12,646 bases of DNA from a virus (Duplodnaviria > Heunggongvirae > Uroviricota > Caudoviricetes). A program made the position numbers and the translations under genes. A model generated the notes under the pieces. That model was not told the origin of the DNA, made no database searches, and worked only from the letters and a program-made list of their open reading frames with translations. The first letter of the stretch is position 1. The number at the start of each line of letters is the position of its first letter. The stretch lies in IMG/VR virus record IMGVR_UViG_2531839662_000020. The stretch is one strand, 5' to 3'. This document shows positions 1 through 11,365 of this stretch, piece after piece.

Positions 1-474
1 AGTTTGCTCCTGCCATAACGTGAAGAAGCAATGACCTGGTGGTCCGTGACTTCCCTACGCTGGCATTATCCAGATCAGGTGATACGGGTATTTCTTACTG
101 ATTTTTGTTATCAGTTGATAATTAATAAGTTTTTCAGCAAACAAGAATTAAAAACTTCAAAACTGACCACACAACTGACCACACATTTTGTTGAAGCTCT
201 ACGAACAAAGACGAACAATAACAAACAAAAGGGAAATTTGCTGGCAGTTTTGCTTAACCGTTATCATTTTTCGGCTATCCGTTATCAAGCTGGTGGATGA
301 TCACGGATAACCCGTTATGGGAATCCCCATATCGGCATCATGCCCACCAGCATGAAGTATTTTTCGCGGATGTAAAAATTTGACGGGGCGGGCGGTCCCA
401 TAAGCAATGGGGGGGTAGGGATTCCGCTCCCCCCCCCTCCCGAATGCAATTTTTCTTATATATATACAAAACAG

Positions 475-629
475 TGCGGGTTATGCGGGTTAGCGGGTTA
501 TCTTCGCGTGCTAAGTATTTTTTATTCTTTAATATCAATGCGTTAAAAAATGATATGTTTGAATATTAGCCAAAACGTAACCCGCAAGACATTCAAAATA
601 ACCCGCAAATACCCCCCAAATAACCCACA
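475..629. repeat. Iteron cluster B: 3 tandem TGCGGGTTA repeats, AT-rich spacer, 3 inverted TAACCCGCA copies at about 21-bp phasing
   Basis: Direct copies at 475-483, 484-492 and 493-501. AT-rich stretch 502-577. Inverted copies at 578-586, 599-607 and 621-629 (last one degenerate, TAACCCACA). Same 9-mer as cluster A at 9086-9219. Confidence 0.7.
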
Positions 630-915
630 ACCCCATCAGGAAAATGGGGCCAGTGATGCCACCGAACGGCTGAATCTGGTAACGTTCTGTTGCCTGGTTG
701 CAGTTTGCGGGTCAGCAATACTGACGCACAAAGTTAGCCGTATGTGGCTGTGCGTCCACCAGCTACGCCGGAATGGGGTATTCCGTTTCAACGGAACAGG
801 TATGACGAATATGATCGCACCTTCTCCCGAAAACGGGTTTGCCTGTTTCGGGAAAACGGGCACATGAAGCTGCATAGACATTTTCACTATTCAGGATCTG
901 GCGGGGGAGTTTCTC

Positions 916-1050
916 AATTTCCACCGTTGGTGGAAATTAAACGAATACAGCGAGTTAGGACAAGGTGACTAATGGTCACTCTGTTGCTGCGTCACCATAT
1001 TGATGATCCAGCCCTGTAGTCGCGCCACTTTTCCACCAATGGTGGAAAAG
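916..1050. repeat. Pair of near-identical 23-bp palindromes (10-bp arms, 3-bp spacer)
   Basis: AATTTCCACC-GTT-GGTGGAAATT at 916-938 and CTTTTCCACC-AAT-GGTGGAAAAG at 1028-1050. Related dyads nearby: GTGAC-TAATG-GTCAC at 965-979 and CCCCC-AAT-GGGGG at 1073-1085. Confidence 0.6.
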
Positions 1051-1191
1051 CCCACAGCAGGCCGCCCAGCCTCCCCCAATGGGGGATTGTGGAAGAATCA
1101 ACGGGTTAGGCCTTAATCATCTGCGTAATCATAAGTAATCATAATGTTCATTCATCCAGCGCAATTTTGCGTTATCGGGAATATCAGCAAG

Positions 1192-1476
1192 TTACCGCCG
1201 CAACCGCTCCGGCTTCTTCCAGTGGTAAGTTATTTTTTCCTTCTCCCGGTACATCTCCACGCGGCGACGATATGACAACAACTCCAGAACTCTGATCCGT
1301 ATGTCGCGCATATCCACGCCGTTAAGCTCAATACCGTCACGGCGCATCACCTCAGCCACCACACGCGCGTAATTTTCGGCTATCACGCTGTCCGGCTGCG
1401 TGGCCTCCTGTTTGCCTGCTTCCTGGCTGATTCCGGTAATGCGGCGGATTATTTTTAGTAGTTCGGTTTCGCTCAC
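1192..1476 (-). CDS. Hypothetical protein, 94 aa, last gene of the packaging operon
   Basis: ORF from track with GTG start 5 nt after the large terminase stop, same strand. Arg/Glu-rich and probably helical. No family recognised. Next in-frame Met is 43 codons in. Confidence 0.45.
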   Translation of the reverse strand: MSETELLKIIRRITGISQEAGKQEATQPDSVIAENYARVVAEVMRRDGIELNGVDMRDIRIRVLELLSYRRRVEMYREKEKITYHWKKPERLRR

Positions 1477-8027: not shown

Positions 8028-8560
8028 GTATCCCCCTTTGCTGCCCGGCGCTGGCGCTTGTGCTTCTCATTCAGCGCCATCAGCCGCGTTTCTGCCTCCT
8101 GCTGTTCCTGTGGTGTCACTTCCCCACATGGCTGGCCTTTCAGGTCGTATCGTACCCCACCAGCAACCAGGGCGCGGTAATAGCGCGGAGACTGCGCATA
8201 AGATGCCAGCGTCGCACGTAATGCCCCCGGCCCGAATGCCAGCCCCCTGACGGCGAGATCCTGCATCAGGTCGTCGAATATCCCCACCTTAAGCGGCTTC
8301 GGTGCTTCCCTGTTGAATAAGTCAGGCCACATCTCAGTGAGGCGGTTAACGCGCCTGCGGTTTTTGCGCTGGCGTTTGGTCATATGCCGCCACGGTGTCA
8401 CCCCTGTGGGCTGCCCTTTGCGGCTCTGCTGTGCGTTCTGATTGCCGGGTATCACTTTATGCGCCGATGTGGTTTTATCCCGCTCTTGCGCCGCCTGCGT
8501 CGTTTTCTGCGGCGTGCCGTAAATGCCTTTCGGTTTTCGGTTAATGGTCAGCTTTGTCAT
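8018..8560 (-). CDS. ProQ/FinO-domain RNA-binding protein with basic N-terminal extension
   Basis: C-terminal two-thirds (WPDLFNREAPKPLKVGIFDDL...LRATLASYAQSPRYYRALVAGGVRYDLKGQPCGEVTPQEQQEA) matches the ProQ/FinO N-terminal domain pattern recalled from E. coli ProQ. N-terminal about 70 aa is Lys/Arg/Gln-rich. AGGGGAAGG RBS. Confidence 0.75.
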   Translation of the reverse strand: MTKLTINRKPKGIYGTPQKTTQAAQERDKTTSAHKVIPGNQNAQQSRKGQPTGVTPWRHMTKRQRKNRRRVNRLTEMWPDLFNREAPKPLKVGIFDDLMQDLAVRGLAFGPGALRATLASYAQSPRYYRALVAGGVRYDLKGQPCGEVTPQEQQEAETRLMALNEKHKRQRRAAKGDTCQ

Positions 8561-8596
8561 GCCTTCCCCTGTAATTACTCTGTTCGCTGTTGTGAA

Positions 8597-9022
8597 TTAA
8601 AACGGTATGTTATCCCCGTACAGGTCATCGTGCTGGCCTGTCTGTTGTTTTGCCCTGTTCAGTGCGTCAGTGGCCTGCCCCTGTTGGCCTTTTTTGCCGC
8701 CCGGTCGCGCCGTTCTCGCACTGATTACGCTGTCTGCGATGACCTGCCAGCCCTGCCGCGTTTCGCCGTTCTGCCCTGTCCACTGGCTTACCTGCATGTT
8801 ACCCGCCACGTTCACCAGTTCGCCTTTGCGGTGTTTTGCCAGTGCGTCGGCCTGTCTGCCAAACGCCAGGACGGATAACCACATCGTCGCCGTTCCGTCA
8901 TCTGCCTGGCTGCATGGCAGGGGAACCGCCATACTCGCCATCGCCATTTGTGTTCCCTTGCTGGTGGTCTTTAACTGCGGGTCAGCCACCAGCCGCCCGT
9001 AAGCCGCTATCTGTGCTGTCAT
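8597..9022 (-). CDS. ssb: Single-stranded DNA-binding protein (SSB)
   Basis: 141 aa. OB-fold-like N-terminal region (GRLVADPQLK...), Gly/Gln-rich linker, and acidic C-terminal tail DDLYGDNIPF resembling the SSB DDDIPF tip. Confidence 0.8.
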   Translation of the reverse strand: MTAQIAAYGRLVADPQLKTTSKGTQMAMASMAVPLPCSQADDGTATMWLSVLAFGRQADALAKHRKGELVNVAGNMQVSQWTGQNGETRQGWQVIADSVISARTARPGGKKGQQGQATDALNRAKQQTGQHDDLYGDNIPF

Positions 9023-9085: not shown

Positions 9086-9219
9086 TGCGGGTTATAATCG
9101 CACTTTTGCGGGTTATAACTGCCGTTTTGCGGGTTACGTGCGGGTTATTGATTTCCTTTTTATTCATACAGTTAATGCACTTATATACATGATAACCCGC
9201 ATAACCCGCATAACCCGCA
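9086..9219. repeat. Iteron cluster A: 4 direct TGCGGGTTA(T/C) repeats (spacing 21/21/11 bp), AT-rich spacer, 3 tandem inverted ATAACCCGC
   Basis: Direct copies at 9086-9095, 9107-9116, 9128-9137 and 9139-9148. AT-rich stretch 9149-9191. Inverted tandem copies across 9192-9219. Lies in the 220-bp gap between the primase-helicase stop and ssb start. Confidence 0.75.
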
Positions 9220-9241: not shown

Positions 9242-11365
9242 TTAATCTTCTGCCTCAGGCTGGAACATCAGCACGTAAAAAACATGCTGCTTCCCCCCAA
9301 TTTTGCCGAGCGCCTTTTTCTTGTAACGGCGATCGTTACCCGCTTCCAGCATTCCGGCAGCACTCAACGCGCGGGCAAAGTGAGACGGATTAAATCCCTG
9401 TGCTATCTCACCCTCAAATACATGCGGGAACGTGTAAAAACGGAACTCGTCATCTTCGTTTCTGATACTCCCCTTTCTGTATCCGGCAAGTTCTTTAATC
9501 GGTAAATCACGCTCGTCGGTATTGGGCCACGGAAGGTATCTGCTGAATCCGAACGACGCTAAAAAAGCTTCTGCCTGTTCAACCATCTGTTTAAATTCCC
9601 TGTTACCCGTGCCGAACTCCTTCACCCAGGCATTAAAATTATGCTGTATGGCATCGCGGCATTCCTGCTCATCCCAGCCAGTAACATGACCTGAAAGCAC
9701 AAGCGCGGCCTCCAGTATGGCAAATCGCTCCCCCACACGGTGAACCTGTTCGCCGTAGCTCTCCGGTATCAGGTTGCGCCACCGCTCACGGCATGTCCTT
9801 ACCGTGTCCTTTGCCTCCTGCTGGTGTTCTGCCAGCCATTTAACCCACTCACGACCCGCCGCCCCGTGATTTTCTGTCCAGGCATCCTTTAACGCGTCTG
9901 CGTGCGCCTTTCCGGTGCTGTATTCGTGAAATTGCGTGGCTTTTTCCATCGGAACGTTAAGCAGGCGGACAAGCTGCCCCGCTTTGACTTTTATCCCCTC
10001 CGTTTTGAGGAATGTCTCAACGTCCATTTCTCCGGTGCTGATTGCCACCGTGCGCCAGTGTTTGATCTCCCTGTTGCCGCCGTCCTTCGCCCCCTGTAAT
10101 TTCCCCGAACCGTTAAACAGCGTATAGGCTGACGTGGACACCTCCCGCGCGTTTCCGGCCTGGCCTATTTCATCCAGGGGTAAAAGCCCGTCATTGTGTG
10201 CCTCTGCTTCGTTGGCGATACCTAACGCTGTGCCGTACCAGGTCAGCCGCTGCGCGTCCGGCTCTCCCCATAAACTTGATGCGATGTTCTGTGTGGTGGT
10301 TTTCCCTGCCGATGACTGTTCGAAAAGATGTACCCCGAAGCCGTCAGCGCCCACCAGCCCGATTAATGGTGCGGATAACGATACCGCCACACCCAGCATC
10401 ATGGACGGATTACCACCAGCCAGCCGCGCAACGATATCGCGCCAGCCCTCCGCCGTTCCTGCCACGGAATAGCCATTAACAGCAGCCGTTTTTCCGGTAA
10501 ACAGGACTGGCTTTTCGCAATCACCAATGACCGAACCGTCCGGCATGATGTACGCGCCAAAATGCCAGCCCGTTGTTGTGCTTAACTGCCATTCCTCATG
10601 GCTTCCGCTTAACTGCATCCAGTCAGCCAGGATAGCCCTGTATTTACCGTTGGTTGTTACGTTCAGTCCGTGGTCTTTCAGCAACCGCCAGCCGTCACGG
10701 TCGCCAATGCCACCGCACGGAACCGCCATTGTGATGACTTCATGGTTTGCTAATTTTTTCCAGCGCATCACGCGGTAATGCTCTTTACCGATTGTCCCCG
10801 TTCCCAGTAGTTCAAGCGGGGAACATAACCACGTCTCAGGCCGGATAATTTCGCCTGACTGCTTATCCACTTTTGGCGTTACCCAGAAAACACCATCGGC
10901 GCGACTTTCAACGCGGGGCTTTAATTCATCATCGCCCTGGATTTCTGTGATTTTTTTCTTTAAGGGCAACACCAGACTTTCCCCGCGCTCGTATTCGTCT
11001 TTGAGGCGAGGCAACTGGTCGGATAAATCCGCCGGGCTGATGTCAGTTATCCCCGCGTATTCGTATACGGTCTTCACGCCAGCCACAGCCAGCAACGTGA
11101 CGATCTGTGTAAGGCTACGTTCAGTGATGTGCCCTGCGCGGTAAACACGCACACACTGACGGCTATCATCAATAATTTGATAACCGGTAATATCTTTCAG
11201 GTGTTCATCTGACAGAACGACAGGCGGCACATTGTCGGCGGCAATATGCTTACCTGCCCATTCCTGCCACTCTTTCGCATGGCTCCACGCATCACTACCC
11301 GCAAAGATGATAACCTCCGTCATTTTGTCGGCTGGCTGGTGCTTTAAGTTTGGTGCGCGCTTCAT
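9242..11365 (-). CDS. Replicative primase-helicase (toprim-like N-terminus, P-loop NTPase core; DUF927-like)
   Basis: 707 aa. Walker A-like SSAGKTTT in the central region. Overall resemblance to satellite and prophage primase/helicase replication proteins. ATGA overlap with the upstream small gene. Followed by iterons. Confidence 0.8.
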   Translation of the reverse strand: MKRAPNLKHQPADKMTEVIIFAGSDAWSHAKEWQEWAGKHIAADNVPPVVLSDEHLKDITGYQIIDDSRQCVRVYRAGHITERSLTQIVTLLAVAGVKTVYEYAGITDISPADLSDQLPRLKDEYERGESLVLPLKKKITEIQGDDELKPRVESRADGVFWVTPKVDKQSGEIIRPETWLCSPLELLGTGTIGKEHYRVMRWKKLANHEVITMAVPCGGIGDRDGWRLLKDHGLNVTTNGKYRAILADWMQLSGSHEEWQLSTTTGWHFGAYIMPDGSVIGDCEKPVLFTGKTAAVNGYSVAGTAEGWRDIVARLAGGNPSMMLGVAVSLSAPLIGLVGADGFGVHLFEQSSAGKTTTQNIASSLWGEPDAQRLTWYGTALGIANEAEAHNDGLLPLDEIGQAGNAREVSTSAYTLFNGSGKLQGAKDGGNREIKHWRTVAISTGEMDVETFLKTEGIKVKAGQLVRLLNVPMEKATQFHEYSTGKAHADALKDAWTENHGAAGREWVKWLAEHQQEAKDTVRTCRERWRNLIPESYGEQVHRVGERFAILEAALVLSGHVTGWDEQECRDAIQHNFNAWVKEFGTGNREFKQMVEQAEAFLASFGFSRYLPWPNTDERDLPIKELAGYRKGSIRNEDDEFRFYTFPHVFEGEIAQGFNPSHFARALSAAGMLEAGNDRRYKKKALGKIGGKQHVFYVLMFQPEAED

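Follow-up and report, generated by a model that had tools for sequence, protein, structure and literature searches.

A stretch of viral DNA of 12,646 nucleotides assigned to the Caudoviricetes (IMG/VR record IMGVR_UViG_2531839662_000020, hereafter referred to as the window) contains two clusters of the same 9-bp iteron, cluster A (9086-9219), which lies next to the gene for a replication initiator, and cluster B (475-629), some 8.5 kb away. This raises the question of what a second set of initiator sites does at such a distance from the first. The initial annotation suggested a bipartite origin of the type found in satellite P4, where ori and crr are both needed in cis. The features discussed below are listed in Table 1.

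Table 1. Positions of features at the two iteron clusters and at the adjoining island end, numbered from the first nucleotide of the window.
Feature	Position	Strand	Remarks
attL core	159..228	.	direct repeat of sequence adjoining int at the opposite island end
Three GATAACGG repeats between att core and module B	270..335	-	read from sequence
B-box	448..474	-	AATTTTTCT-(TA)5-CAAAACAG; near-palindromic T-run/(TA)n/A-run, external to the tandem iterons
Module B tandem iterons, three	475..500	+	TGCGGGTTA, TGCGGGTTA, (A)GCGGGTTA; 9- and 8-nt spacing
Module B AT-rich spacer	501..577	.	77 bp, 27% GC; candidate unwinding element
Module B inverted iterons, three	578..629	-	starts 578, 599, 621; 21- and 22-bp phasing
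Terminator-like hairpin	628..652	-	tail overlaps third inverted iteron of B; consensus scan only
Module A iterons, four	9086..9147	+	starts 9086, 9107, 9128, 9139; 21, 21 and 11 bp spacing
Module A AT-rich spacer	9148..9192	.	45 bp, 24% GC
Module A tandem iterons, three	9193..9219	-	starts 9193, 9202, 9211; 23 nt from rep stop codon
Pri-Rep initiator/helicase, 707 aa, DUF927	9242..11365	-	Pfam PF06048, E=6e-46
Putative iteron-specificity domain of Rep	about 9242-9565	-	last ~110 residues

A locus of E. coli UMNF18, located between thiM and rcnR, matches the window at 99.6% identity, and the window is a capsid-forming PICI (cf-PICI) of E. coli, a satellite class defined in bioRxiv 10.1101/2022.09.08.507074. 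The island encodes an integrase, regulators, a DUF4222 protein, the DUF927 Pri-Rep, ssb and proQ, together with an HK97-type capsid, protease, portal, connector, HNH protein, TerS and TerL, with no tail genes. The integrase and att sites, the set of genes from capsid to TerL and the lack of a tail, which characterise cf-PICIs, were recognised from the UMNF18 annotation, the att repeats and protein matches to the cf-PICI of EDL933. The attL core repeat extends over 70 bp (91% identity, 30 bp exact) when aligned with positions 19874-19943 of the UMNF18 locus (L001). As the island is bounded by the att repeats, cluster B lies within the element, about 250 bp from the attL core and about 100 bp from the attL arm, where the GATAACGG repeats are possibly integrase arm-type sites. 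The block from ssb to terL separates A and B in this lineage, placing B in the terminal segment of the island, and the order once the element is excised is terL - B - attP - int.

Several other features of these islands were observed. The UMNF18 locus differs from the window by a 544-bp insertion at window position ~7748 (L001 11746-12290), which encodes a 168-residue hypothetical protein, and its terS and HNH genes are annotated as frameshifted; the matching ORFs are open in the window. The cf-PICI core of E. coli GPT24-02 (L003) and of strain 10 (L097) is inserted in, and splits, the large-terminase gene of an HK97-like prophage. An array of repeated units is found between terL/hyp94 and cluster B (window 900-1195, and 8330-8790 of the EDL933 locus, L002), each unit consisting of a variable perfect palindrome (e.g. 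TTTCCACCGTTGGTGGAAA at 918-936 and TTTCCACCAATGGTGGAAA at 1030-1048) and then a conserved tail, GAAnAATATCARCNRGTTA. There are two such tails in the window and six in the EDL933 island (10 matches versus 1.7 expected), and the stems vary in sequence yet remain palindromic. The array may represent packaging (cos/TerS) sites or hairpins.

Module A is a canonical PICI origin. The origins of PICIs directly follow rep on its 3' side and comprise two iteron sets around an AT-rich stretch, and their iterons are bound by a winged helix in the C-terminus of Rep (PMC6092414; PMC9371898); the assignment of A is made on the grounds that it fits this published design and starts 23 nt past the rep stop codon. 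Residues 209-605 of the window Rep give a profile match to the staphylococcal “Pathogenicity island protein” of PDB entry 8tch (E=2.8e-16), and in tblastn searches the protein matches the Rep region of SaPIpT1028. An AlphaFold2 model built from a 41-sequence alignment had a mean pLDDT of 54, with values below 50 in the C-terminus, and was too poor for a fold search. The system resembles the Pri-Rep-ori modules of PICIs and SaPIs (SaPIbov1, SaPI1, EcCICFT073) in its homologous Rep (DUF927; PDB 8tch; SaPIpT1028), in an origin 3' of rep with opposed iteron sets around an AT region, in a specificity that appears to reside in the Rep C-terminus, and in being carried by an integrase-bearing island of unidirectional organisation. 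In contrast to the published systems, which have one unit by rep (PMC6092414; PMC9371898), the window has two in inverted order, the second of which is 8.5 kb off and accompanied by a (TA)n box. Two opposed sets of iterons, one on either side of an AT-rich region, are seen in both A and B, whereas the location immediately 3' of rep applies to A and not to B, although homologs of B do occupy that location in 35 of 76 relatives.

The layout described for cluster B in the initial annotation, namely three tandem 9-mers, an AT-rich stretch and three inverted copies at about 21 bp, is present as stated except that the stretch measures 77 bp rather than 75 bp, and B does have the reverse-complement architecture of A, as was also noted there. 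The anticipated enrichment of the 9-mer was likewise borne out. Eleven exact copies of TGCGGGTTA occur in the 12.6-kb window, all of them within cluster B or cluster A, and none was found in the E. coli chromosomal flanks (54 kb); allowing up to one mismatch, there are 16 matches in the window compared with 2.9 expected, a number reached by none of 200 shuffles. The exact forward copies in B are at 475-483 and 484-492, and the third tandem copy, AGCGGGTTA at 492/493-500, matches at 8 of 9 positions with a spacing of 8 nt. Two of the inverted copies (578-586 and 599-607) are also exact, and the third, at 621-629, reads TGTGGGTTA (8/9). This G>A change is private to the window, TGCGGGTTA being present there in the other 10 aligned distal E. 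coli B modules; the adjacent module of EDL933 (L002) does not align at this position. The spacer of B is far richer in AT than the window (27% versus 52% GC) and includes, at 516-566, the least stable 50-bp duplex of the window according to nearest-neighbour energies (-52.9 kcal/mol; mean -72.4, sd 4.7). The second least stable (9145-9195) is the spacer of A.

Module B also possesses an element with no counterpart in module A. Of 44 B modules, 37 have a TATA-like box 8-20 nt past their final tandem iteron, in every iteron class and in both adjacent and distal arrangements, with the consensus TTTT(T)G-N-TATATATA-(C)AAAA following B. The (TA)n tract of this B-box ranges from 5 to 8 repeats across E. 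coli islands. We considered the box as a possible DnaA box, but matches of 7-8 out of 9 were too weak and the assignment was discarded. A G-run/C-run hairpin (GGGGGGGTAGGGATTCCGCTCCCCCCCC) is present at 409-440, just beyond the B-box, and a tail beginning CGAAAAATTGCATTCAGG is common to the window, the E. albertii island L005 and other distal-B islands. An 11-mer, TGCGGGTCAGC, corresponding to the iteron with one change, is found at 706-716 and at 8976-8986, about 80-110 bp beyond the phased-iteron side of B and A, respectively; the copy near A sits within ssb and the pair may be due to chance. Scans of positions 1-1500 detected two terminator-like hairpins, which is no excess over shuffles, and no sigma-70-like promoter or good -35, and an Rfam scan of the whole window gave no match at the gathering threshold. 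The ORFs that cover the B region (550-867 and 31-300, both on the + strand) have no Pfam match and are probably spurious, although they are annotated in some genomes. It might also be supposed that B is the remnant of a decayed neighbouring replicon; we rejected this, since positions 1-1500 yield no fragment of Rep in tblastn and the iterons are all that A and B have in common.

Scanning one genome per species (GTDB set) with a Rep alignment yielded 80 loci, of which 76, from other species, were classified; at least 12 iteron classes are represented among these relatives. The two modules are adjacent in 35 loci and split in 10, while 13 have A only, as do a further 4 with short flanks; the remainder have an upstream cluster (2), a partial arrangement (4) or no clear iteron (8). 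In the 10 split loci, B is located 0.6-8.8 kb downstream and its iteron is that of the local A. These loci span four iteron classes, the E. coli family constituting a fifth, and when islands of this lineage are included along with the 10 other species, the overall separation of A and B is 0.6-12 kb. Clusters of the element's own iteron class are found in addition to A on 13 occasions, compared with 0.44 expected from shuffles. The downstream flank covered in the 13 A-only relatives is 4.6-10 kb, and the existence of such relatives implies that one module probably suffices.

The polarity of the modules is well conserved. Read in the direction of rep, module A has 2-3 tandem copies, an AT spacer and 3-4 phased copies, and module B has 2-3 phased copies, an AT spacer and 3 tandem copies. 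The tandem copies and the box are rep-distal in all split loci, and in 9 of the 10, as well as in the split islands of E. coli, the spaced copies are on the rep side and opposite in orientation to the tandem ones. In locus L063 the box is distal as elsewhere, but two spaced copies are in tandem orientation. Of the 44 B modules, 18 have an ORF of at least 45 codons in the sense of rep whose start is no more than 75 nt from the final tandem copy; a Shine-Dalgarno sequence often accompanies it. In Spirabiliibacterium pneumoniae (Pasteurellaceae, L079) the second own-class cluster is located upstream, directly after int (-3679 to -3544 from the rep end). In many relatives (e.g. L018, L020, L025 and L042), A-only representatives included, a conserved CTGGCTGGCAG-like motif comes after the phased copies of module A; it is absent from the window.

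The cf-PICI of EDL933 (L002), presumably the prototype EcCIEDL933, invites comparison with the window. The two islands are of the same element type, share gene order, iteron and packaging module, and are colinear apart from the location of B. In EDL933 the B homolog directly adjoins A, with a small gene and ssb downstream of it, whereas B of the window is beyond terL and the corresponding site next to A is empty of B. Overall identity between the two B modules is 80%; the five iterons that align are intact or nearly so, whereas the spacer has diverged. The Rep proteins differ at the N-terminus and are the same at the C-terminus, residues 550-700 being 88-96% identical, with lower identity in the last few residues.

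Distal B modules with TGCGGGTTA are found in E. coli islands at six integration sites with differing cargo, and they are not limited to cf-PICIs, occurring also in non-cf islands, with A as much as 11.8 kb away. Among E. coli genomes, 300 contain B-like and 252 contain A-like sequence, and distal-type B outnumbers split-type A (183 versus about 109 genomes); no decayed copies of B were found among 303 E. coli genomes with a match. Ten E. coli matches to B were sampled irrespective of rep. Six of these islands encode the cognate Rep and four do not, a share of about 40% in line with the counts of distal-type B and split-type A genomes, yet six intact copies of TGCGGGTTA are retained in all four. 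Island L089 contains an unrelated replicon with GGTAGACA iterons, L090 encodes a RepA-family helicase with CTCCCCAC iterons, and L095 has a truncated rep pseudogene. The fourth, the cf-PICI L093 (E. coli E500002, 23480-25582), encodes a chimeric Rep in which a window-type N-terminus is joined to a P4-alpha helicase/DNA-binding part (49% identity), and its iterons, grouped in a cluster that resembles crr, are genuine P4 type I sites (TGTTCACC); the locus has no second cluster of them elsewhere. Island L092, which has the DUF927 Rep, is 98.8% identical to L093 over 23 kb and differs essentially in the replicon alone, and the occurrence of such near-isogenic islands with different replicons indicates that module swapping is frequent.

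Outside E. coli, Serratia oryzae (L011) has its own adjacent A and B together with a distal B of a foreign iteron class. This orphan was revealed by a control scan for foreign iterons, which otherwise matched mainly one-mismatch relatives and low-complexity k-mers. Together with the orphan modules of E. coli, it indicates that B can persist without its Rep. The presence of intact B modules in islands with non-cognate replicons leads us to conclude that B is part of the island backbone, in its terminal segment, that replicon cassettes are exchanged independently of it, and that it is dispensable where another replicon is present. The invariably terminal position of B applies to the E. coli/E. 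albertii group, as att sites could be located in only some of the other species.

Comparison of the Rep proteins provides a clue to the recognition of the iterons. The Rep of E. albertii L005 is 92-100% identical to that of the window up to about residue 590, beyond which identity falls to 42, 34 and 14%, and both A and the distal B of this island contain CTTGTCCCA in place of TGCGGGTTA, with a B-box and a tail toward att that are still homologous. Hence the C-terminus has been exchanged together with the iteron in L005, whereas in EDL933 the N-terminus differs and the iteron is retained, suggesting that iteron specificity maps to the last ~110 residues of Rep and that B follows suit. The mosaic relationship between L005 and the window is compatible with a single exchange of a linked block extending from the Rep C-terminus to B, so that covariation alone is no proof of selection on B, and the agreement between A and B iterons in split islands can likewise be explained in part by linked co-inheritance rather than selection. 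The iterons of B are far better conserved than their surroundings. Across the 12 E. coli B modules compared, variation affects 10 of 53 iteron columns and 101 of 167 other columns (Fisher p=1e-7), and B modules that differ at 27% of the other positions have kept every iteron.

According to its GenBank record, the crr of P4, annotated as “cis required region”, is immediately 3' of the alpha gene and abuts attP, with ori 4.5 kb away. It is made up of two 120-bp units in direct repeat, and within each unit a pair of tandem iterons at 9 bp is combined with an AT spacer, inverted iterons and an A/T-run on the outside. The similarities to the window are evident, as in both cases two separated cis regions, kilobases apart, contain the same initiator iterons, one region being 3' of the initiator gene; an iteron unit abuts the attachment site (crr at attP, B at attL); and the design of the crr unit resembles that of modules A and B. 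In addition, some members of the family encode an alpha-like primase domain (35% identity) or an alpha-like helicase/DNA-binding part (49%). The former is exemplified by Cedecea davisae (L022, 8822-13574), where a 959-residue Rep combines a P4-alpha-like Zn-ribbon/Toprim primase domain with a DUF927 helicase, a gene for the P4 “Beta protein” (PF14350) follows rep, and the origin is split; this element looks like a P4/PICI hybrid satellite. On the other hand, the window Rep is not alpha-like (no similarity to alpha in BLASTP, best E 0.07), crr is a pair of direct 120-bp repeats located by alpha, P4 ori is built differently, and the iterons are not the same (TGCGGGTTA versus TGTTCACC), in agreement with the initial annotation, which considered the 9-mer unrelated to that of P4. 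The dissimilar Rep and different iteron rule out direct membership of the P4 ori/crr type, and the resemblance is functional and architectural, with mosaic evolutionary links.

The proposal of a P4-like bipartite origin is consequently upheld with respect to the separated clusters of identical sites and their similar layout, and is modified in other respects, given that the Rep is of the DUF927/SaPI type, that B is a complete origin unit and that the split is lineage-specific. A requirement for both clusters in cis is not indicated, considering the 13 A-only relatives and the absence of a cognate Rep from 4 of 10 E. coli islands with B. Nor is this fully the independent instance of P4 logic that was envisaged, as a P4-alpha-like primase domain occurs in the family and L093 combines an alpha-like helicase part with TGTTCACC.

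Iteron plasmids also possess clusters of Rep sites outside the primary origin, for example incA of P1, incC of F and the gamma origin of R6K with its associated alpha and beta origins, and these auxiliary clusters can interact with the primary origin via Rep-mediated pairing or looping. Such sets are plain iteron arrays or partial origins, whereas B comprises the full iteron/AT/iteron succession, melting region included, and is carried by a satellite whose replication comes as a burst following induction. Arrays of the incA/incC type lack an unwinding element of their own, and B contains both the least stable duplex of the window and the (TA)n tract.

Taken together, we consider it probable that cluster B is a second or auxiliary origin unit, recognised by Rep and displaced from A. 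It is the A-only relatives, and the unrelated replicons in about 40% of E. coli islands with B, that favour an auxiliary or second unit over an obligate partner similar to crr. Extending the anatomy, conservation, covariation and distribution of B to a mechanism, we infer that the DUF927 Pri-Rep would bind TGCGGGTTA via its C-terminal ~110 residues, by analogy with the winged-helix C-terminal domain of SaPI Rep, and that Rep bound at B would melt the spacer, so that B may serve as a second or auxiliary site of initiation and unwinding. Contacts between Rep molecules could provide communication by bridging B to A, and B would in principle be dispensable.

It is unlikely that the two clusters form an obligate origin of the P4 ori/crr type, in which initiation at only one cluster requires the other in cis and Rep multimers unite the two by looping out the 8.5 kb between them (or a 6.4-kb arc in the excised circle). 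The same iterons in clusters kilobases apart, the matching logic of P4, where crr follows alpha on its 3' side and adjoins attP just as B adjoins attL, the similar construction of the crr units and the conserved polarity of distal B are all consistent with this model, as is the presence of a second own-class cluster (adjacent, split or upstream) with every full-length window-type Rep of the GTDB set that has clear iterons, except L008. However, A-only relatives occur, each module has its own complete origin anatomy, and the helicase and DNA-binding part of Rep is unrelated to that of P4 alpha; moreover A and B lie side by side in 35 of the 76 related loci and in EDL933, implying that distance is not a design feature. 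We also regard as improbable the possibility that B is a functionless passenger, the leftover half of an ancestral A+B origin that was kept with the terminal segment when blocks were reshuffled and is not used by Rep. The iteron columns are conserved relative to spacer and flanks even at 27% divergence elsewhere (p=1e-7), decayed copies are absent among the 303 E. coli genomes with a match, and the iteron class of B equals that of A in 10 of 10 split loci of other species, all of which speaks against this reading; the orphan modules beside unrelated replicons (L089, L090, L093) or a truncated rep (L095), the foreign-class B of L011 and the replicon exchange between L092 and L093 speak in its favour.

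An origin function is not the only role that can be envisaged for this site. B could be a Rep-dependent regulatory site, either a promoter/operator in which (TA)n serves as a -10-like element and the operator is formed by the tandem iterons, or a locus that limits A by titration or handcuffing, as with incA of P1 and incC of F. Its fixed polarity with respect to transcription would suit such a role, as would the rep-sense ORF of at least 45 codons close behind the tandem iterons in 18 of 44 B modules and the fact that an outward signal at B would point to attP and int after excision. This seems quite unlikely, though, as no sigma-70-like promoter was found at 1-1500 and no good -35 is present, (TA)n varies in length from 5 to 8 repeats, no gene follows B in the window, and the least stable duplex is located in B, unlike incA-type loci, which have no melting region. 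Similarly, there is only a slim chance that B is a portable, self-sufficient origin cassette served by Rep in trans. If so, islands with an orphan B would be amplified by, or would titrate, the Rep of a co-resident satellite of the TGCGGGTTA class, amounting to hitch-hiking or incompatibility between phage satellites at the level of the origin.

In the literature searched, where the PICI origin is described as a single iteron/AT-rich/iteron unit by rep, we came across none that has two modules or is split, whereas this large family of enterobacterial satellites typically has two such units. The relatives form a natural series of separations, in which the modules are adjacent, split by 0.6-12 kb, reduced to A only or represented by an orphan B, some members being nearly isogenic (L092 and L093). 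Such a panel of variants allows the role of a second origin unit and its action at a distance to be addressed, a question that P4 crr left open. The finding also bears on the design of minimal replicons for delivery vectors based on cf-PICIs and on the annotation of island ends, as well as on the exchange of replicon modules of the DUF927, P4-alpha and RepA types among satellites.
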